DNA of 11,387 nucleotides from a virus (taxonomy: Duplodnaviria > Heunggongvirae > Uroviricota > Caudoviricetes), in the IMG/VR virus record IMGVR_UViG_2654587686_000004, positions 1-11,387 of that record; one strand, 5' to 3'. A model generated the notes under the pieces. The model was not told the DNA's origin and made no database searches. It was given only the letters and a program-made list of their open reading frames with translations. Position numbers and translations under genes: made by a program. Positions 3 to 10,481 of the stretch are shown here, one piece after another; position 1 is the stretch's first letter, and each line of letters starts with the position of its first letter.

Positions 3-2732
3 ATGGGGCAGTTTGGTGACTCCATCCAGCGAACGCAGGGGGCGATCAAAAATCTCGAGCGTCAGGCGCGATCATTTGAGCGCGCCCGCGACGCTGTCAG
101 TAAAGCGGATGCGGGTATCGTGAAAGCACGACGCCAGCTTAACGCCCTTAATCAGTTACAACGCACGGGTACAGTGCTCAGCGAAAAACAACAAAAGCTG
201 ATGCAGCAGTTAAGCACCCGGCTTGAACGCCTGAATGAATCGCGCACACGGGAAATTCAGAAAATGCGGGAACTTGGCGGAGAGCTAAAACGCCACGGCA
301 TTTCCCTGACAGGTAGCGATAACACCATCCAGCAGGCCATCAGACGCACCGAACAGTACAACAACCAGCTTGAACGCGAACGGCAGGCGCTTGCGCGTGT
401 AACGCGGGCGCGTGAGCGGTATTCGCGCGCGCAGGAAACAGCGGGAAAACTGAAAACAGGTGGTGCGCTGGCAATTGGTGCGGCAGCGGCGGGCGGCTAT
501 GCTGCCGGGCGTTTTTTGCAGCCTGCGATCGGGTTCGGCAAAGAGATGTCCCGCGTTCAGGCACTGACGCGAATCGACCAGAACAGCCCGCAGTTTAAGG
601 CGCTGCGTGAGCAGGCGTTAAAACTTGGCTCTGAAACGCAGTTCACCGCAGGCGATGCCGCCAGTGGACAGGCATTTCTTGCAATGGCTGGCTTCACTCC
701 GCAGGCCATTCAGGCTGCGCTTCCCGGCGTGCTGAGCATGGCAACGGCTGGCGGTATGGATCTCGGCGAGACGGCAGATATTGGCTCAAATATCCTGACG
801 CAGTTCGGCCTTTCTGCTGACCAGATGGACCGGGTCGGTGACACACTCACCGCAGCGTTTACCCGTACCAACACTGACCTTCGCGCACTGGGCGAAACCA
901 TGAAATATGCAGGTCCGGTGGCGGGCAAGCTGGGAATATCGCTGGAGCAGGCCGCAGCGATGGCGGGCGTGCTGGCGAATATGGGTATCAGGGGAAGTGA
1001 TGCCGGGACGGCAATGCGTGCCAGCCTGGCTCGTCTGGCATCACCGCCAAAGGCGGCAGCAGAGGCGCTGAAAGAGCTGGGCGTGTCTGTCTCGGATGCT
1101 GGGGGCAAAATGCGCCCGATGGAGGATGTGCTGGCCGACCTTTATAAAGCCACCCGCAAATACGGGGAAGTTGACCGGGTATCGTTCTTTAAGGACATTG
1201 CCGGAGAAGAGGCTTTCACATCGTTTATGGCGCTCGTTGATGCAGCGGGTGACGGTTCCTTACCCAAACTGAGAAAAGAACTTGAAGGCGCGCGCGGTGA
1301 GGCTGAACGCACAGCAAAGGTTATGGCCAACAACCTTGACGGCGATCTGAAATCACTCGGCAGTGCATGGGAAGGGGTGCGCATCCGCATTGCAGATCTG
1401 ATTGACGGTCCGCTGCGTTCTGTCACGCAGTGGCTCACGCGGGTGGTATCAAGGGTGACGGCGCTGGCGCAGGCCCATCCGGCACTGACGCGCCAGCTAC
1501 TGATAGCAGGCGGTGCGTTGCTGGCAATGACTGCAACGGTTGGCTCGTTGTCGCTGGCTATTGGTGTGCTTGCTGGTCCGCTGGCAAAACTGCGTCTTGG
1601 TTTTTCTCTCCTGACCGGATCAATGAATGCTGTCAGGGTCCTGCCAGCGCTGTGGGGAATGGTGACGGGTTCCGTTTCTTTACTGGGAGGCGCTATCGGG
1701 GCGCTGTTCAGTCCGGTTGGTCTTATCGTGGCTGCGCTTGCCGGAGCTGCCGTTCTTATCTGGAAATACTGGGATCCCATCAGGGCATTTTTTGCCGGGG
1801 TGTTCAGCGGGATTATGGAAAGGCTGACCCCGCTGCGCGAAACCTTTGAACGGTTTGGTCCTGTTTTTGACGCAATCGGAAGCGGGATCAGCCAGGTGTT
1901 TAACTGGTTTAAATCGCTGCTGTCACCGATGGAGTCCAGCAAGGAAACGCTGGATAAATGTACCAGTGCTGGCGAGATATTCGGTAACGTTCTTGGCGGT
2001 GCGTTACAGCTTGTTCTGACACCTGCAAAAATGCTACTGGATACGCTGGCGTGGATACTTGAAAAACTTGGCGTCCTTCCGGATGAAGCGGAAAAGGCGC
2101 GCAAGAAAATCGAAGACGCACAGCGTGCGGCCATTCTTCAGGACAAGGTTGCCTTGCTTCAGGGGGACCTGGCGAAAATCAATCCGCCGAAGCCTGTGGA
2201 AAATGGCAATGGCACCGGAGGTGATAAACCCAAAGACAACAAACCGCTCACAGACAGCAATACCGGGACGCTACGCAGACTCAGCAAAATTGCTGATAAC
2301 ACAGGTAAGCTGGTTGATGAGACGAAAAAACGCATTGGCCCCGGCGATATTGTCTTTAAGAACCTGCCCCGCGCACTGGCTGTTCGTGGGGAGTGGCAGG
2401 AGCGGAAGATTGCGCAGGTCAGTAAGCCTGCCCCCGCAATTAATATCACACCCGTGGTCCCGGCTCCGCTGCCTCCGGCGCTGGTCCCTGTTGTTGCGGC
2501 CAGCTCCCGCCCGGTGGCGGAGGCCATACGATCGCCAGTGGCATCAGTTCCTGCAACTTCCCGTAACCGGGAGCCGGTTGCCTCCGGATTTGGCGGTGAA
2601 ATTCATGTTCATCTGCATAACGTTGTTACACAGAATCCCCGCGAACTGGCGAAACTGGTCGGTGAAATGGTCAGGGCAGAAATGGAACGGCGCGCCCGTG
2701 CCGGGCGTGGCAGTTTTTACGATAAAGATTGA
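3..2732 (+). CDS. Phage tail tape-measure protein (P2 gpT-like), 909 aa
   Basis: Long ORF with a coiled-coil-rich N-terminus, a central core resembling TP901/P2-type tape-measure proteins, a Gly/Ala-rich hydrophobic segment and a Pro-rich C-terminus. ATG at 3-5 overlaps TGA at 1-3, so the start may be genuine and coupled to an upstream gene, but upstream sequence is not visible. Followed directly by a gpU-like gene as in P2. Identity from memory of the family, not searched. Confidence 0.88.
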   Translation: MGQFGDSIQRTQGAIKNLERQARSFERARDAVSKADAGIVKARRQLNALNQLQRTGTVLSEKQQKLMQQLSTRLERLNESRTREIQKMRELGGELKRHGISLTGSDNTIQQAIRRTEQYNNQLERERQALARVTRARERYSRAQETAGKLKTGGALAIGAAAAGGYAAGRFLQPAIGFGKEMSRVQALTRIDQNSPQFKALREQALKLGSETQFTAGDAASGQAFLAMAGFTPQAIQAALPGVLSMATAGGMDLGETADIGSNILTQFGLSADQMDRVGDTLTAAFTRTNTDLRALGETMKYAGPVAGKLGISLEQAAAMAGVLANMGIRGSDAGTAMRASLARLASPPKAAAEALKELGVSVSDAGGKMRPMEDVLADLYKATRKYGEVDRVSFFKDIAGEEAFTSFMALVDAAGDGSLPKLRKELEGARGEAERTAKVMANNLDGDLKSLGSAWEGVRIRIADLIDGPLRSVTQWLTRVVSRVTALAQAHPALTRQLLIAGGALLAMTATVGSLSLAIGVLAGPLAKLRLGFSLLTGSMNAVRVLPALWGMVTGSVSLLGGAIGALFSPVGLIVAALAGAAVLIWKYWDPIRAFFAGVFSGIMERLTPLRETFERFGPVFDAIGSGISQVFNWFKSLLSPMESSKETLDKCTSAGEIFGNVLGGALQLVLTPAKMLLDTLAWILEKLGVLPDEAEKARKKIEDAQRAAILQDKVALLQGDLAKINPPKPVENGNGTGGDKPKDNKPLTDSNTGTLRRLSKIADNTGKLVDETKKRIGPGDIVFKNLPRALAVRGEWQERKIAQVSKPAPAINITPVVPAPLPPALVPVVAASSRPVAEAIRSPVASVPATSRNREPVASGFGGEIHVHLHNVVTQNPRELAKLVGEMVRAEMERRARAGRGSFYDKD

Positions 2733-2744
2733 GGAGTCATGGCC

Positions 2745-3233
2745 ATGATGATGATCTACGGCATGTTTGTTTTTGAGCTGCGCACGCTGCCGCATCAGCA
2801 GTTACAGCAAAACAAAAGCTGGCGGCATGTGAAAAATGAACGCGTTAACCGTTCAGCAAGCTGGCAGTATATCGGTGCAGGAGATGATCGCATCGTTCTT
2901 TCTGGTGTGCTTTATCCTGAAATTACAGGTGGCGAAGTATCGCTGTCGCTGCTGACCACGCAGGCGTATACAGGACGCCCCTGGCCTCTGATTGATGGCG
3001 TCGGGCAGATTTACGGCATGTATGTGCTGACTGAAACGAATACGACCCGTTCCGAGTTTGATCGCTACGGTAAGGCGAAAAAGATAGAATTTTCACTGAC
3101 CCTTGAACGCTGTGATGAGGATTTGCGGGAGCGCCTGCAATCCTCATCGTTCAGTGATATGCTGTCCGGCTTCAAAGATAAGGTGACATCATCTCTTAAC
3201 AGCGCGGCCAGCTCCGTTAAAGGGCTGTTTTGA
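2745..3233 (+). CDS. Phage tail protein, P2 gpU-like
   Basis: ORF 2739..3233; the N-terminus MMMIYGMFVFELRTLPHQ and the internal GVLYPEITGG and WPLIDG motifs resemble P2 gpU. GAGGAG at 2731-2736 is 8 nt upstream of the ATG at 2745, which is the preferred start; the ATG at 2739 is too close to it. Stop TGA at 3231-3233. Confidence 0.85.
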   Translation: MMMIYGMFVFELRTLPHQQLQQNKSWRHVKNERVNRSASWQYIGAGDDRIVLSGVLYPEITGGEVSLSLLTTQAYTGRPWPLIDGVGQIYGMYVLTETNTTRSEFDRYGKAKKIEFSLTLERCDEDLRERLQSSSFSDMLSGFKDKVTSSLNSAASSVKGLF

Positions 3234-3240
3234 TTAACGC

Positions 3241-3270
3241 AAAACCGCTAATGGTCAGATTAGCGGTTTT
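3241..3270. terminator. Bidirectional rho-independent terminator hairpin between convergent gpU and invertase genes
   Basis: Perfect 12-bp inverted repeat AAAACCGCTAAT (3241-3252) / ATTAGCGGTTTT (3259-3270) with a 6-nt loop GGTCAG. T-runs follow the stem on both strands (CATTTTCC on +). The invertase stop codon (3260-3262) lies inside the 3' arm. Confidence 0.7.
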
Positions 3271-3859: not shown

Positions 3860-3912
3860 AAAAAACATCCTCTTTGTTTCGTGAAAAATACATAGTTGGT
3901 ATAGGTAGGGAT

Positions 3913-3938
3913 AAAACGAAAACGTTGGTTTGGGGGAA
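3913..3938 (-). repeat. Invertase crossover site s1 (hix/gix-like, 26 bp), inverted relative to s2-s6
   Basis: Reverse complement reads TTCCCCCAAACC-AA-CGTTTTCGTTTT: a 12-bp left half identical to the other five sites, central AA dinucleotide, and imperfect right half. Resembles hixL (TTCTTGAAAACCAAGGTTTTTGATAA, from memory). Lies 53 bp upstream of the invertase start. Confidence 0.75.
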
Positions 3939-4388
3939 GGCTCTGCACTGCCCGTTGGCGTGCCCGTTCCGTGGCCTTCAGCAACACCGCCAACGGGGTG
4001 GCTGAAATGTAACGGCGCAGCATTTTCTTCTGAAATGTACCCCAATCTGGCAAAGGCTTACCCAACGTTAAAATTACCTGATTTACGCGGTGAGTTTATC
4101 CGTGGTTGGGATGATGGGCGCGGGGTGGATGCGGGAAGGGGCATCTTAAGCATACAGGGGTGGTTAACAGGAAGTCATTATCATAATATTCGGTCATGGG
4201 ACGCGTGGGATAACACGGTACTGGTGCCAAATGACAAAGGAGGGGATAGTCTGTTGTCGACAGATAACGCCGTCCGGCAAGGTGCAATTAACGGTAGATT
4301 TACCAGTCAATACAGAACGGAATCCTCAGTGGGGAATGAAACCCGCCCACGCAATATTGCCTTCAATTATATTGTGAGAACCGCATAA
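3930..4388 (+). CDS. Silent alternative tail-fibre C-terminal cassette A (collar-like receptor-binding tip); no ATG start
   Basis: Begins inside s1 with GLGEGSALPVGVPVPWPSATPPTGWLKCNGAAFSSEMYP...LPDLRGEFIRGWDDGRG and ends ETRPRNIAFNYIVRTA. An in-frame TAA lies 6 codons upstream and there is no ATG or ribosome-binding site; the tracked start is a TTG. Same architecture as the expressed H C-terminus. Confidence 0.8.
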   Translation: MGEGSALPVGVPVPWPSATPPTGWLKCNGAAFSSEMYPNLAKAYPTLKLPDLRGEFIRGWDDGRGVDAGRGILSIQGWLTGSHYHNIRSWDAWDNTVLVPNDKGGDSLLSTDNAVRQGAINGRFTSQYRTESSVGNETRPRNIAFNYIVRTA

Positions 4389-4999
4389 TGAATAACGCGA
4401 TATTAAATGATGACCTTATTGCCGTACAGGCAGGAAACATCGTCGTTTATAACTATGATGGTGAGACACGGGAATATATTTCCGAATCAACTGAATATCT
4501 TGCTGCGGGTGTCGGTATTCCGGCAAATTCCTGTTTAGATGCCCCGGGCGCACATAAAGCGGGCTATGCTATCCGCCGTTCGGAGAATTTAAATTCATGG
4601 GAGTATACGCCAGATCATCGTGGTGAAACCGTCTATAGCACTGACACGGGAAACACCGAAGAAATCACGACGCTGGGTGACTACCCGAAAAATACAACCA
4701 CTATCGCCCCGTTAACACCATACGATAAATGGGATGGTGAAAAATGGGTGACAGATACTGAGGCACAACATGGTGCCGCAGTAGAAGCGGCAGAAACCAA
4801 GCGCCAGTCACTGGCTGATGCGGCAATGGCTTCCATAAGTCTGATTCAGTTGAAGTTGCAGGCCGGGCGGAAGTTGACGCAGGCAGAAACCACCCGGCTT
4901 AACGCCGTGCTGGATTATATAGACGCACTGAACGCAATGGATATAAACATGGCACCAGATATCAACCGGCCGGAAATACCACTGGCAGCAGCCAGTTGA
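4388..4999 (+). CDS. Tail-fibre assembly chaperone (Tfa; lambda Tfa / Mu U / P2 G family)
   Basis: ATG overlaps the cassette A stop (TAATG). Sequence blocks GIPANS, DHRGETVY, KWDGEKWV, TDTEAQ, ETKRQSL and the C-terminal PDINRPEIP parallel lambda Tfa (LPANS, DHRGKTVY, KWNGTAWV, PDIEWPAVP) as recalled. Confidence 0.88.
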   Translation: MNNAILNDDLIAVQAGNIVVYNYDGETREYISESTEYLAAGVGIPANSCLDAPGAHKAGYAIRRSENLNSWEYTPDHRGETVYSTDTGNTEEITTLGDYPKNTTTIAPLTPYDKWDGEKWVTDTEAQHGAAVEAAETKRQSLADAAMASISLIQLKLQAGRKLTQAETTRLNAVLDYIDALNAMDINMAPDINRPEIPLAAAS

Positions 5000-5005
5000 A
5001 TATAA

Positions 5006-5482
5006 CTAAGCCGCCCTCACGATATAGTTAAATGCAATATTGCGGGGGCGGGTTTCACTACCACCTGTGTTACCAATACTTCCTCGTGAATGAAGCGTTG
5101 GTGATGGAATCAAACTCCCTCCTGTATTTGTGGCATCAAGCCCCCTGCCTTGTGTATATGTTTTTTTGAAAATCGTGGCCAACTCCCATTCATCCTTTGT
5201 GTCATATCCATCGTTAGCTACAACAATATGGCGGTGTTTTTCCAACATCCCGGTTTGAATGCTCAATAAAGCGCGTGCTGCATCAATTCCTCGCCCATCA
5301 TCCCAGCCGCGAATAAATTCGCCCCGTAAATCCGGTAATTTATTGGCGGGGTAGGCTTTTGCCAGTTTGGGGTAATCTTCAGAAGAAAATGCTGCACCGT
5401 TACATTTCAGCCAGCCCGTTGGTGGTGTTGCTAAGGGCCACGGAACGGGCACGCCAACGGGCAGTGCAGAGCCTTCCCCCAA
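5006..5482 (-). CDS. Silent alternative tail-fibre C-terminal cassette B; no ATG start
   Basis: Conserved 70-aa N-terminus (GEGSALPVGVPVPWP...RGWDDGRGIDAAR), unique core and conserved C-terminus SETRPRNIAFNYIVRAA. Starts inside crossover site s2. Its 3' end converges on tfa with only 6 bp between the stops. Confidence 0.8.
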   Translation of the reverse strand: MGEGSALPVGVPVPWPLATPPTGWLKCNGAAFSSEDYPKLAKAYPANKLPDLRGEFIRGWDDGRGIDAARALLSIQTGMLEKHRHIVVANDGYDTKDEWELATIFKKTYTQGRGLDATNTGGSLIPSPTLHSRGSIGNTGGSETRPRNIAFNYIVRAA

Positions 5483-5499
5483 ACCAACGTTTTCATACT
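5474..5499 (+). repeat. Invertase crossover site s2 (26 bp)
   Basis: TTCCCCCAAACC-AA-CGTTTTCATACT. The left half is the first codons (GLGE) of cassette B; the right half contains the stop codon of cassette C. Confidence 0.75.
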
Positions 5500-5999
5500 G
5501 CCCTTACGATATAATTAAAGGCAATGTTACGAGGACGGTTTTCGTTTGCAGTTGGAACAATTCTTGAAGCATCAAGGCCAATCACTTTTGGGTAAACAGA
5601 GCCATCTGTTCTTTCTATCACCATACTTCTGATTAAGGAGAAATAACTATTGTTCGTTGAGGGGTTCAAAGGCACCACTGCCCCCTTAAATGAGTCTACT
5701 GATTCCCATATTGAATAATTTTCGGTGTTTACAGTCTTGAACTCACCATAGATATTACGTATGGCATCGCCCTGAGCGGATAATATTGCTCTCCCCGCAT
5801 CCACACCACGCCCATCATCCCAGCCACGGATAAATTCACCGCGTAAATCCGGTAATTTATTGGTGGGGTAGGCTTTTGCCAGATTGGGGTACATTTCAGA
5901 AGAAAATGCTGCACCGTTACATTTCAGCCACCCCGTTGGCGGCGTGGCTGAGGGCCATGGAACGGGCACACCAACGGGCAGCGCAGAGCCTTCCCCCAA
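5493..5999 (-). CDS. Silent alternative tail-fibre C-terminal cassette C; no ATG start
   Basis: Conserved N-terminal block, unique core, C-terminus ENRPRNIAFNYIVRAV. Starts within s3; stop lies within s2. Confidence 0.8.
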   Translation of the reverse strand: MGEGSALPVGVPVPWPSATPPTGWLKCNGAAFSSEMYPNLAKAYPTNKLPDLRGEFIRGWDDGRGVDAGRAILSAQGDAIRNIYGEFKTVNTENYSIWESVDSFKGAVVPLNPSTNNSYFSLIRSMVIERTDGSVYPKVIGLDASRIVPTANENRPRNIAFNYIVRAV

Positions 6000-6016
6000 A
6001 CCAACGTTTTCATGCT
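5991..6016 (+). repeat. Invertase crossover site s3 (26 bp)
   Basis: TTCCCCCAAACC-AA-CGTTTTCATGCT. Same half-site and core as s2; overlaps the cassette D stop (TGA, 6010-6012) and the cassette C first codons. Confidence 0.75.
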
Positions 6017-6438
6017 GCCCTTACGATGTAATTAAACGCAATATTACGAGGACGAATGGTTACATAATTAACCCCATCACCTCGTGAAGGCCCTGCAAAT
6101 GAAAAACGGGAAAAGCCTGGTTGGTTAGAAACAATTTGGTCATAGTTATTGATTGAATGACCAGACCCAATGTCGAAATTACCTCCGTAATGAGAAAAAC
6201 TTGTACCATCCTGCCCTGAAAGCAGGGTACGTCCCGCATCAATCCCGCGCCCATCATCCCAGCCACGGATAAATTCACCGCGTAAATCCGGTAATTTATT
6301 GGTGGGATAAGCCCTTGCCAGTCTGGGATACATTTCAGAAGAAAATGCTGCACCGTTACATTTCAGCCAGCCCGTTGGTGGTGTTGCTGAGGACCACGGA
6401 ACGGGCACACCAACGGGCAGTGCAGAGCCTTCCCCCAA
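6010..6438 (-). CDS. Silent alternative tail-fibre C-terminal cassette D; no ATG start
   Basis: Conserved N-terminal block (one substitution, PWSSAT), unique core, C-terminus TIRPRNIAFNYIVRAA. Confidence 0.8.
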   Translation of the reverse strand: MGEGSALPVGVPVPWSSATPPTGWLKCNGAAFSSEMYPRLARAYPTNKLPDLRGEFIRGWDDGRGIDAGRTLLSGQDGTSFSHYGGNFDIGSGHSINNYDQIVSNQPGFSRFSFAGPSRGDGVNYVTIRPRNIAFNYIVRAA

Positions 6439-6455
6439 ACCAACGTTTTCATGCG
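6430..6455 (+). repeat. Invertase crossover site s4 (26 bp)
   Basis: TTCCCCCAAACC-AA-CGTTTTCATGCG. Confidence 0.75.
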
Positions 6456-6982
6456 GCTCTTACGATGTAATTGAATGCAACGTTGCGGGGGCGTGTTTCT
6501 GCTGTGCCGACAATACTGGTACTCAGTCCTGTCGCTGTTCGTTTGTTATTTTTATTCCCTTCGATAAGACAGTTGTAATCGTCATTACCAATTAACGAGT
6601 TGGTGGCATCAATACTGTCCGGGGACAAGGCATTAGTTGTGGAACTTAAAGTCAGCATCTCGTCTGAACTTGGAAGATTTTTTAATGGTGTTTCATTACG
6701 TGAAATACCCGCATAAAAAAAGGACTCATGCCTGTGCGCTTCAAAGGAGTCATCCTGAAGACTTAGCAAGGCACGCCCAGCATCCAAGCCACGTCCATCA
6801 TCCCAGCCACGGATAAATTCACCCCGTAGATCCGGTAATTTATTCGCGGGGTAAGCCTGTGCCAGTTTGGGGTAATCTTCAGAAGAAAATGCTGCGCCGT
6901 TACATTTCAGCCAGCCCGTTGGCGGTGTAGCTGAGGGCCACGGAACGGGTACACCAACGGGCAACGCAGAGCCTTCCCCCAA
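6449..6982 (-). CDS. Silent alternative tail-fibre C-terminal cassette E; no ATG start
   Basis: Conserved N-terminal block, the longest unique core (about 90 aa), C-terminus AETRPRNVAFNYIVRAA. Confidence 0.8.
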   Translation of the reverse strand: MGEGSALPVGVPVPWPSATPPTGWLKCNGAAFSSEDYPKLAQAYPANKLPDLRGEFIRGWDDGRGLDAGRALLSLQDDSFEAHRHESFFYAGISRNETPLKNLPSSDEMLTLSSTTNALSPDSIDATNSLIGNDDYNCLIEGNKNNKRTATGLSTSIVGTAETRPRNVAFNYIVRAA

Positions 6983-6999
6983 ACCAACGTTTTCATGCG
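6974..6999 (+). repeat. Invertase crossover site s5 (26 bp)
   Basis: TTCCCCCAAACC-AA-CGTTTTCATGCG; overlaps the stop codon of H (TGA, 6993-6995) and the first codons of cassette E. Confidence 0.75.
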
Positions 7000-8633
7000 G
7001 CTCTTACGATGTAATTGAATGCAACGTTGCGAGGGCGAGTTTCTGTACCTACATTTCCACTAATTTCACCAAACCGTTTTACATTACGAGAGCTAATGGC
7101 TCGTAGTGAGGAAGGCACCTTTAAACCGGGTTCGTCTGTTTTAACTATTCCCCCGTCCCCGTATGTAGCCAGTATTCCAGGGTTTACTCCTTCCCGTGCA
7201 CTTCCCGCGGCAAGTCCGCCCCCGGTCCATAATTCCATATAGTGTGCATGATCCAAAATTGTGTGTGGCTGCCAATTAAGCAAAGCGCGACCAGCATCCA
7301 CCCCGCGCCCATCATCCCAGCCGCGAATAAATTCTCCCCGTAAATCCGGTAATTTATTGGCGGGGTAGGCTTTTGCCAGTTTGGGGTACATTTCAGAAGA
7401 AAATGCTGCGCCGTTACATTTCAACCACCCCGCTGGCAGCGTGGCTGAGGGCCATGGAACGGCCACACCAACAGGCAGCGCAGAGCCTTCCCCCAAACCA
7501 AGGTAATCAAGAACTCCCTGAGTGCTGGTTTTGCCAAGAATGGCACGTCCAACACTTGTCAACGCGGTTAACGCGGCACGATCTGCCCCTGTAAAATATG
7601 GGAGTTTATCTGCTGATGTGGCAAGCTCCGCCAGCGCCGTCAGGGTGGCATCCTTCGGTTGCTTACCCGCAAGCGCGTTAGTCATGGTGGTCGCAAAATT
7701 CGGGTCATTGCCCAGCGCCGCAGCCAGTTCGTCCAGCGTGTTCAGTGCATCAGGTGACGAATCTACAAGTGCGGCAATCGCGGCCATAACGAAAGCCGTG
7801 CTTGCGATCTGGGTACTATTAGTCCCCTGTGCCGCCGTTGGTGTTGTTGGCGTTCCGGTCAGTGCCGGGCTGTTTAATGGTGCTTTCTTGTTCGTTTCAT
7901 CCATTACCGCCTTAACAGCTTTTGGTGTCGCTGCCAGCGTTTCAGACGTGCTGTTCGTGGCGCTACTGAGCTGAACAATCCCTTTTTGTGTAGTGGTGGC
8001 GTTCTGGGCGGTATATTTCCCGTTAGCCAGGTCATATGCAGCCTTAACCGCTTTCGGTGTTGCGGCCAGTGTTTCTGATTCACTGTTAATTGCACTGCTT
8101 AACTGAGTAAAACCTTTTACGGTCAGCGAGGCGTCCGGGTGACGTCGTGACTGTTCGTGCTCTGAGATTTTATCATCCACATATTTGCGGGTTGCCAGAA
8201 CCACAGACGGGTCGATTTTCAGCGTGATGGCTTCGGTGTTCGTGACAACCAGAATCATGCGGATAGTCTGGGTGCGTCCACTGCCTTCCTGCAACTGCGG
8301 TTTGTACGTTTCCGGGCAGTTTGCCACCGCAATAAGTACGCCTTCATCATCATAAAGACCAATCTCACGGATCCAGAATCCTCCCTCGTTTTCAGGGATG
8401 ATTTGTTCCGCAATAATCTGGCTCTGATTGTTAGGGTCAACACTCAGAAGATTCAGCGGTGCAATGCGTTTCTGGTTAATCAGTTTTGTTTGTGCAGGGT
8501 CTGGTGTTGGTAACACACCATTTGCATCACCAACGGCCATTTGCGTCAGATTCAGCTTACTGCCGAGCATCGTCGCGTTAGCCAGTCGTGCCGCGCCCTG
8601 ATTAGTCAGAATGGCGTAGTATTTCACTGTCAT
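6993..8633 (-). CDS. Tail-fibre protein (P2 gpH-like constant N-terminus fused to expressed C-terminal cassette F)
   Basis: 546-aa ORF whose ATG overlaps the gpI stop (ATGA). The N-terminal ~160 aa (MAVGDANG, GGFWIREIGLYDDEGVLIAVAN, KPQLQEGSGRTQT) resemble P2 gpH. Residues ~381-546, downstream of crossover site s6, have the same collar-like cassette architecture as the five silent cassettes and end ETRPRNVAFNYIVRAA. Confidence 0.93.
   Translation of the reverse strand: MTVKYYAILTNQGAARLANATMLGSKLNLTQMAVGDANGVLPTPDPAQTKLINQKRIAPLNLLSVDPNNQSQIIAEQIIPENEGGFWIREIGLYDDEGVLIAVANCPETYKPQLQEGSGRTQTIRMILVVTNTEAITLKIDPSVVLATRKYVDDKISEHEQSRRHPDASLTVKGFTQLSSAINSESETLAATPKAVKAAYDLANGKYTAQNATTTQKGIVQLSSATNSTSETLAATPKAVKAVMDETNKKAPLNSPALTGTPTTPTAAQGTNSTQIASTAFVMAAIAALVDSSPDALNTLDELAAALGNDPNFATTMTNALAGKQPKDATLTALAELATSADKLPYFTGADRAALTALTSVGRAILGKTSTQGVLDYLGLGEGSALPVGVAVPWPSATLPAGWLKCNGAAFSSEMYPKLAKAYPANKLPDLRGEFIRGWDDGRGVDAGRALLNWQPHTILDHAHYMELWTGGGLAAGSAREGVNPGILATYGDGGIVKTDEPGLKVPSSLRAISSRNVKRFGEISGNVGTETRPRNVAFNYIVRAA
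7488..7513 (+). repeat. Invertase crossover site s6 at the H constant/variable junction
   Basis: TTCCCCCAAACC-AA-GGTAATCAAGAA. The left half is identical to s1-s5 and the core is AA; the right half is the diverged H constant-region sequence (codons for VLDY). Any cassette joined here gives the same in-frame YLGLGEGS junction. Confidence 0.75.
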
Positions 8634-10130: not shown

Positions 10131-10481
10131 TTACTCTCTCAGCGTGATGGTTAATTCAACATTCTGCATGGTCTGCATGACAGTGCCCGACAGCGTCACC
10201 CCGGCGCGGCCTCCTGCCTTCCAGACAACGTCGATAGCGTCCAGGGCAATGCGGGGTTCCCATCGCGTCAGTGCAATCACGGCAGCACTCATGCATTGCA
10301 GACGCGTGGTGTTATTCATGGGTTCGTCAATCAAATCAGGCACAAGGCTGCCATATTCCCGTCGCATAACCCGGCTTGCCAGCGGGGTGGTCAGGATGTC
10401 CCTGACTGACTGTTTCAGGTGCTCCATATCGTTCAGGTTTCCCGTTCCGTCCGGGTTCATTCCTGTGTAGCGGGTTGTCAC
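10131..10481 (-). CDS. Baseplate wedge protein, P2 gpW-like (GPW/gp25 family)
   Basis: 116 aa, MTTRYTGMNPDG...SRVMRREYGS...LTRWEPRI, resembling P2 gpW. The start codon is GTG (10481-10479) overlapping the gpV stop (GTGA). Confidence 0.85.
   Translation of the reverse strand: MTTRYTGMNPDGTGNLNDMEHLKQSVRDILTTPLASRVMRREYGSLVPDLIDEPMNNTTRLQCMSAAVIALTRWEPRIALDAIDVVWKAGGRAGVTLSGTVMQTMQNVELTITLRE

Follow-up and report, generated by a model that had tools for sequence, protein, structure and literature searches.

How can a tail-fibre gene reach each of a row of alternative 3' ends when only one of its six crossover sites is inverted relative to the other five? The question is raised by the 11,387-bp window analysed here, which is the entire draft-assembly contig JHQZ01000113.1 of Escherichia coli (GCA_001265235.1) and carries the tail module of a P2-like prophage. 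Between a serine DNA invertase gene and the constant part of the tail-fibre gene H (Hc) lie six collar-domain cassettes (c1 to c6), a single tail-fibre assembly gene (tfa) and six crossover sites (s1 to s6), whose coordinates are collected in Table 1. We are highly confident that the tail-fibre operon of a P2-like (P88-like) E. coli prophage here contains a multiple DNA-inversion module of the Min type, a reading built on the sites, the cassettes and their reading frames, the family of the invertase, the number of isomers and the natural isomers found in relatives. The 5:1 layout of the sites is a shuffled state captured by the contig and not a property of the system.

Crossover sites, cassettes and isomer logic

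The 22-mer TTGGTTTGGGGGAAGGCTCTGC occurs in the window in six exact copies, one on the + strand (3925-3946) and five on the - strand (5466-5487, 5983-6004, 6422-6443, 6966-6987 and 7480-7501); 200 shuffles of the window produced zero matches, for an expected count of 0.00. The initial annotation had described one inverted site against five direct ones, and s1 indeed lies on the + strand with s2 to s6 on the - strand. The coordinates that it gave for the region, 3913-7513, are the exact outer edges of s1 and s6, and its span of about 3.6 kb agrees with the 3,575 bp that separate the central dinucleotides of these two sites. Each 26-bp site was defined as the 12 nt upstream of a TT dinucleotide, the TT itself and the cassette-side half GGTTTGGGGGAA. 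The core and this right half are identical in 6/6 sites, and GGTTTGGGGGAA matches the right half of gix, GGTTTACAGGAA, at 10/12 positions. Since the TT core is non-palindromic, each site has a polarity. The left halves of s1 to s5 show poor symmetry (4-5/12), and the upstream half of s6 is nearer to other Gin-family half-sites than are those of s1 to s5. A motif recurring in each head, AGTTTGGGGTA, was considered as an additional site and discarded, as its centre is CC and it is found in coding sequence on the opposite strand.

The 5' edge of every collar-domain cassette coincides with one crossover site, and each site heads a repeat of approximately 214-255 nt, the s1 copy being 83-90% identical to the other five. 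This repeat of about 250 nt is the conserved, collar-domain coding portion of the cassette; all six cassettes continue from the Collar domain head into a variable stretch and finish with a conserved C-terminal end (...RPRN(I/V)AFNYIVR..). The present H gene is composed of the constant part (8633..7502, 377 aa) joined in frame at s6 to c6 (7496..6993), and at the other edge of the region an in-frame TAG at 3903 shuts the c1 reading frame upstream. The TGA stops of upstream cassettes fall within the upstream half of the next site (..ATGAAAACG; 5486-5499, 6003-6016, 6442-6455 and 6986-6999), with only about 10 nt between neighbouring cassettes. The tail half-sites are therefore partly coding and move with the cassette that precedes them.

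Given such an arrangement, the invertase would recombine any two oppositely oriented 26-bp sites at the TT centre. Each site would act as the union of a "tail" half and the identical "head" half GGTTTGGGGGAA, which would open every cassette in the same frame; the six tails would be the constant H end, the 3' ends of c3, c4, c5 and c6 and the invertase flank, to be combined with six identical heads. The units exchanged would be four head-to-tail segments (c3 to c6) and one head-to-head segment (c2> <tfa <c1). Because conservative exchange at the TT core keeps every tail|head junction, a single grammar would describe all the reachable arrangements, which reads in the direction of H as Hc> [k forward cassettes] {head-to-head segment, either way} [4-k reversed cassettes] inv>. 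In each isomer H would end in one of six receptor-binding tips; these presumably confer different host ranges, and the temperate phage would fit six host-range options into 3.6 kb. For annotation this means that the tandem "phage tail protein" open reading frames (ORFs) of such loci are to be regarded as promoterless 3' cassettes and not as genes.

Breadth-first enumeration from the window arrangement reaches 240 isomers (5! x 2), at most six inversions apart. The sites are split 5:1 in 96 of them, 4:2 in another 96 and 3:3 in 48; H is fused to each of c3 to c6 in 48 isomers and to c1 and c2 in 24 each, and tfa is co-directional with H in exactly 120/240. With all four simple cassettes pointing forward, the window represents the extreme isomer, and this is the reason for its 5:1 site orientation. 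In this isomer s1 is the sole oppositely oriented site, so that every first inversion needs it, as the initial annotation had stated. The same holds for two further statements in it, namely that inversion between s1 and s6 joins c1 (its cassette A) plus tfa to H, which the enumeration reaches in one inversion, and that c2 to c5 (its cassettes B to E) are accessible only through longer paths, each requiring at least two inversions.

The enumeration that had been suggested as a check thus confirms the step counts for this isomer and contradicts the strongly skewed isoform distribution that had been derived from them. Heads are identical over their first 20 nt or so, and a 26-bp site is consequently set by its tail half, which stays put. 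An inversion and the event that undoes it involve one and the same pair of sites, whose positions relative to the invertase gene do not change. This makes the rate matrix symmetric, irrespective of the rates of individual site pairs, and the neutral stationary distribution is therefore uniform over the 240 isomers. In the absence of selection, H would be fused to each of c3, c4, c5 and c6 in 20% of the molecules at equilibrium and to c1 and c2 in 10% each, which leaves the supposedly favoured c1 under-represented. Starting from the window isomer, a skew towards c6 and then c1 fades over approximately one inversion per site pair, and any isoform skew is a transient founder effect. Nor is the 5:1 orientation a fixed design, since it is shared by 96 of the 240 isomers, of which the relatives occupy many.

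Isomers in related prophages

We compared 31 loci, that is, the window and 30 relatives from metagenomes, IMG/VR and E. coli genomes in which tfa is at least 90% identical. Cassettes c1 to c6 (90-100% identity) are found in these loci fused to H, in internal positions or adjacent to the invertase, on either strand and always in a grammatical context. The 12 complete related loci all follow the predicted grammar (12/12), with tfa antisense to H in seven and co-directional in five. A single four-cassette set is present as three different isomers in the IMG/VR loci L126, L136 and L137. A further comparison comes from another E. coli assembly (L212), where tfa is 100% identical and c5, c1, c2 and c4 match at 100%, in the order Hc> c5> c1> tfa> <c2 <c4. 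This arrangement is five inversions away from the window form, and in it the tail of c4 is re-paired with the head of c2, matching the prediction. Independent assemblies of a single strain, E2348/69, differ by a large inversion. The grammar kept by the 12 complete loci, the isomers that share a cassette set and the inversions demonstrated in the EPEC homologue are indirect signs of the Gin/Din-family behaviour of inverting DNA between inverted sites as opposed to deleting it between direct ones.

Polymorphisms within the 228-nt heads were linked to their own variable part in 72/73 cassette instances, in any junction context. Crossover is thereby limited to the first 20 nt or so of the repeat, that is, to the 26-bp site.

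The first four loci inspected all had tfa convergent with H, and this was considered as a possible rule. It was rejected by the 7:5 split among the 12 complete loci and by 30 complete E. coli chromosomes, in 16 of which tfa is antisense to H and in 14 co-directional. A scan for tfa in a contig collection holding one genome per species found only relatives of at most 82% identity.

The number of sites ranges from three to nine among prophages (nine in L050, three in L206, four in L001 and six in the window), and the constant H, gpI, gpU and the invertase are 92-100% identical across prophages that differ in cassette number. Since the number of cassettes varies despite near-identical flanks, cassettes are gained and lost by a process other than inversion. 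Further cassette types, of about 153, 155, 165 and 167 aa, occur in the relatives and are absent from the window.

Some of the related sequences carry marks of difficult assembly. Six short-read contigs with an identical tfa (L213-L218) measure 0.9-1.5 kb and stop inside c1 and c2; in the two that were checked, L213 and L214, the contig ends at or before the repeat heads. Such breakpoints are typical of assembly collapse at shuffling repeats. Palindromic duplications are present in three IMG/VR loci (L129, L138 and L140), with two back-to-back copies of tfa in L129 and with c3 and c6 on both sides in L140; their appearance is that of chimeras assembled from mixed populations of isomers, and real duplications are the less likely reading. 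Assembly artefacts have been warned of for loci of this type (PMC4134206). Assemblies of such loci record one arbitrary isomer or chimeras of several.

The invertase and known inversion systems

The assignment of the recombinase to the Gin family in the initial annotation agrees with its domains, its structural match and its sequence identities, which place it among the Gin/Min-family serine invertases. Pfam searches identified Resolvase (E = 3.6e-51) and HTH_7 (E = 2.3e-12), the small-serine-recombinase layout of an N-terminal catalytic domain and a C-terminal helix-turn-helix. Residues 1-185 align with the Gin structures 4m6f/3uj3 (E ~ 1e-91; 3e-91), with Ser9 aligned in YIRVSTNDQ. Its sequence identity is 72.5% to Mu Gin and 92.6% (176/190) to the invertase of pJIE250-3, which is itself reported to be 98.5% identical to Min of p15B (PMC6906374). 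Judging by these identities it is probably the orthologue of Min, the link passing through the pJIE250-3 protein.

The 26-bp sites share a common 2-bp core, as is characteristic of the Gin/Din family, and the invertase also has the Fis/enhancer-contact residues of this family. It carries K46, K47 and R50 (GLK46K47LLR50) and the Q-x-x-R-L pattern (EQ-I-A-R-L). The comparison takes its numbering to be that of Hin minus 1 and draws on the sequence of the Hin DNA-binding domain. In Hin, positions 47, 48 and 51 together with 151, 154 and 155 are reported to be residues unique to the Fis/enhancer-dependent invertases, and K47, K/R48 and K/R51 (helix B) and Q151, R154 and L155 (DNA-binding domain) touch Fis and the enhancer (McLean et al., PMC3798978). 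A Fis-like 15-mer, GAAGATAAAATCAGC, is centred at +101 of the invertase gene and conserved with gin. We infer that inversion depends on Fis and an enhancer. In P1-like plasmids the 65-nt spacer that runs from the start codon of the invertase to s1 (3860-3925) is conserved as well; the invertase promoter presumably lies in it, next to s1 or overlapping it, which hints at an autoregulation comparable to that of cin.

The inversion mechanism has been textbook knowledge since the work on Mu, P1 and p15B. The G segment of Mu (Gin) and the C segment of P1 (Cin) have, like the window, 26-bp sites, an in-frame tail-fibre fusion and an adjoining invertase gene. They differ from it in having two sites, two isomers and a pair of tfa genes, each of which serves one orientation, against six sites and one tfa in the window, and TC as the central dinucleotide instead of TT. 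The R64/IncI shufflon (Rci, sfx, pilV) likewise combines overlapping invertible segments, rearrangement by inversion only and a constant 5' part with alternative 3' ends; its recombinase Rci, however, is a tyrosine recombinase acting on unrelated sites, and its product is a conjugative-pilus adhesin, whereas the window has a serine recombinase and a phage fibre. Membership of the R64-type shufflons was rejected, the sole recombinase in the window being of the serine type.

Among the closest known architectures is that of Min of p15B from E. coli 15T-, with its mix sites. As described in the papers that cite the original work (Sandmeier, Iida, Arber et al. 1990-1992), it shares with the window a Din/Gin-family serine invertase, a stretch of about 3.5 kb with six crossover sites, and a fibre gene whose constant 5' part has six alternative 3' ends. 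The Min region of p15B reportedly forms 240 isomers as well, the number counted here for the window. The window has what defines a Min-type region in terms of DNA architecture, namely more than two sites, overlapping invertible segments and one constant 5' part. It departs from Min in its setting, since it is not on a P1-related plasmid and does not encode a P1 S-type fibre: p15B is a P1-like plasmid with an S-type fibre, whereas the window belongs to a chromosomal P2-like/P88-like prophage with a P2-type H, and its constant fibre part (377 aa) is unrelated in length to that of p15B. The flanks of the module are of P2 type (gpU, tape measure, gpI/J/W/V), and the close relatives in complete E. 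coli genomes are chromosomal.

Loci on P1-like replicons were also found among the relatives. The P1-like phage vB_EcoM-673R5 (L208) has a multi-cassette region with a single tfa in a head-to-head segment, as in the window; it carries an H-type site, TTCTTAATTACC TT GG, collar cassettes and a frameshifted invertase whose fragments are 91-97% identical. The plasmids pJIE250-3 (L209) and pAVS0068-B (L210) have intact invertases 93% identical to that of the window. The invertase-proximal flank and its site are the same in L208 and L210 as in the window, and L209 differs at 2/12 flank bases. The Min-type module of invertase, sites and cassettes is common to P1-like plasmids and P2-like chromosomal prophages, and it appears, from sequence comparison, to have been exchanged as a whole between phages of the P1-like and P2-like kinds.

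Two prophages with published inversions are closely related to the window. In EC958 prophage Phi2 the sites, TCCTCAATTACC TT GGTTTAGGAGAA and GAGAGATAAACG TT GGTTTGGGGGAA, are near-identical to those described here and lie within a 227-bp imperfect inverted repeat encoding the collar domain (Forde et al. 2014, PMC4134206); an alternative inverted allele was caught there in PacBio contigs (PMC4134206). Unlike the six-site window, Phi2 is a plain switch with two sites and two isomers. The prophage of enteropathogenic E. coli (EPEC) strain E2348/69 belongs to the same family as that of the window. Its invertase is 100% identical over 186 aa and its Hc 99.5% identical, its s1 and s6 sites are identical, and its third site is one base off s2 and equals s3. 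It shares c1, c2 and c4 (98-100%) and the same c2> <tfa <c1 segment, and differs in having three sites, which give four isomers, where the window has six sites that give 240, with c3, c5 and c6 as extra cassettes. Goldberg et al. (2014, PMC4272514) used PCR and deep sequencing to show that the P2-like prophage "shufflon" of E2348/69 exists as four coexisting variants, and the site spacing of the E2348/69 locus together with its repeats fits the published inversions of approximately 2.2 kb and 1.8 kb (PMC4272514). As the strain, the P2-like context, the three inverted repeats and the inversion sizes all agree, we matched the E2348/69 locus to the published shufflon. The architecture is hence already known, from p15B Min and from this EPEC prophage (PMC4272514), precedents that the initial annotation did not mention, and the mechanism is conceptually not new; what the window locus adds is a larger version of a prophage locus verified in 2014.

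Alternative explanations, the single tfa gene and the locus map

Several points weigh against a Min-type module that is at work in the window as described. That inversion is active in this particular strain is a judgement made from its relatives. The Fis-like 15-mer had no clear partner at 48-bp spacing in the 5' region of the invertase gene, nor had its counterpart in gin, in a search with a simple motif that is too crude for the purpose. The single tfa is antisense to H in this isomer and its promoter was not found in the scan described below, a difficulty for the folding of fibres in the half of the isomers that share this orientation. For the large inversion in EPEC the ratio was about 90:10 and not 50:50 (PMC4272514), so that real populations need not sit at the uniform equilibrium. 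Finally, the window is one whole draft contig, and draft repeats of about 250 nt can in principle be mis-joined.

This last point leads to the possibility that the 5:1 tandem order is a short-read artefact that stitched mixed isomers into one path, an explanation also favoured by the assemblies that break at the repeat heads (L213-L218) or look chimeric (L129, L138, L140) and by the published warning of such errors (PMC4134206). We consider it improbable: the contig is grammatical and contains each cassette once, every tail half fits its upstream cassette, and the repeats differ by 10-17%, which is usually resolvable. A wrong order of c3 to c6 would, moreover, leave the system and its logic unchanged. 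It is still harder to believe that RecA shuffles the cassettes, by homologous recombination or by gene conversion along the ~250-nt repeats, with the invertase an incidental neighbour. At 214-255 nt and 83-90% identity the repeats are sufficient for RecA, and the range of three to nine sites among prophages whose flanks are 99-100% identical requires some process of deletion or insertion. Yet the head polymorphisms begin only 21-49 nt into the repeat and are linked to the variable part in 72/73 instances, every junction is an undamaged Gin-type site of 26 bp centred on TT, a Min/Gin orthologue lies next to the cassettes in all cases, and homologous systems invert through their invertase (PMC4134206, PMC4272514). 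We think a role for RecA as the shuffling agent very improbable.

The downstream position of four cassettes without an in-frame start codon of their own could also be taken to mean that the locus is a frozen relic, with one arrangement that no longer changes in this strain and with four tandem cassettes that are silent and never reach H. Such a relic would be expected neither to keep an intact invertase ORF, the exact sequence of which is present on at least 1000 contigs, nor to have six perfect sites. An assembly with identical tfa and cassettes (L212) is in another isomer, and the assemblies of the single strain E2348/69 include two isomers. We find fixation of the arrangement scarcely credible, and a Min-type module from which the contig records one isomer is the explanation that we retain.

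For such a module, the position of tfa has a consequence of its own. One copy serves six cassettes and, as it lies inside the head-to-head segment, every legal inversion flips it. A sigma-70 scan for a promoter of tfa or of the invertase-proximal cassette returned nothing relevant, the single match being below the shuffle expectation, and a terminator-like hairpin (3241-3270) separates tfa from the T-U operon; by its placement, this hairpin would stop read-through from the T-U operon into s1, c1 and tfa. If all six tips needed tfa and tfa had no promoter of its own, the region would be two switches in one, a six-way specificity selector and a parity-driven ON/OFF control for functional fibres, an idea that we regard as unlikely. 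To our knowledge, a parity-driven ON/OFF switch is undescribed for Min-type regions.

Both ends of the window are cut within prophage genes, and the features between them are listed in Table 1.

Table 1. Positions of the sites, cassettes and genes in the 11,387-bp window.
Feature	Position	Strand	Remarks
Tape-measure gene	3-2732	+	P2-type flank
gpU	2739-3233	+	
Terminator-like hairpin, 12-bp stem	3241..3270	+	separates gpU from the invertase 3' end
Serine DNA invertase, 199 aa	3260..3859	-	catalytic Ser9; Resolvase + HTH_7
Site s1, AAAACGAAAACG TT GGTTTGGGGGAA	3913..3938	+	only + site; fixed invertase-side flank / c1 head
Cassette c1, 152 aa	3930..4388	+	Collar domain; promoterless in current isomer
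tfa (tail-fibre assembly gene), 203 aa	4388..4999	+	Caudo_TAP; between c1 and c2
Cassette c2, 158 aa	5006..5482	-	Collar domain
Site s2, AGTATGAAAACG TT GGTTTGGGGGAA	5474..5499	-	c3 3' end / c2 head
Cassette c3, 168 aa	5493..5999	-	Collar domain
Site s3, AGCATGAAAACG TT GGTTTGGGGGAA	5991..6016	-	c4 3' end / c3 head
Cassette c4, 142 aa	6010..6438	-	Collar domain
Site s4, CGCATGAAAACG TT GGTTTGGGGGAA	6430..6455	-	c5 3' end / c4 head
Cassette c5, 177 aa	6449..6982	-	Collar domain
Site s5, CGCATGAAAACG TT GGTTTGGGGGAA	6974..6999	-	c6 3' end including TGA stop / c5 head
Tail-fibre gene H, present form, 546 aa	6993..8633	-	constant part + c6
Site s6, TTCTTGATTACC TT GGTTTGGGGGAA	7488..7513	-	constant H / c6 head
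gpV, W, J, I		-	alongside H; P2-type baseplate genes V-W-J-I-H

A perfect 15-nt inverted repeat, ACCACCCCGCTGGCA / TGCCAGCGGGGTGGT, connects the c6 head (7424-7438) with the gpW gene (10377-10391) and is probably due to chance.

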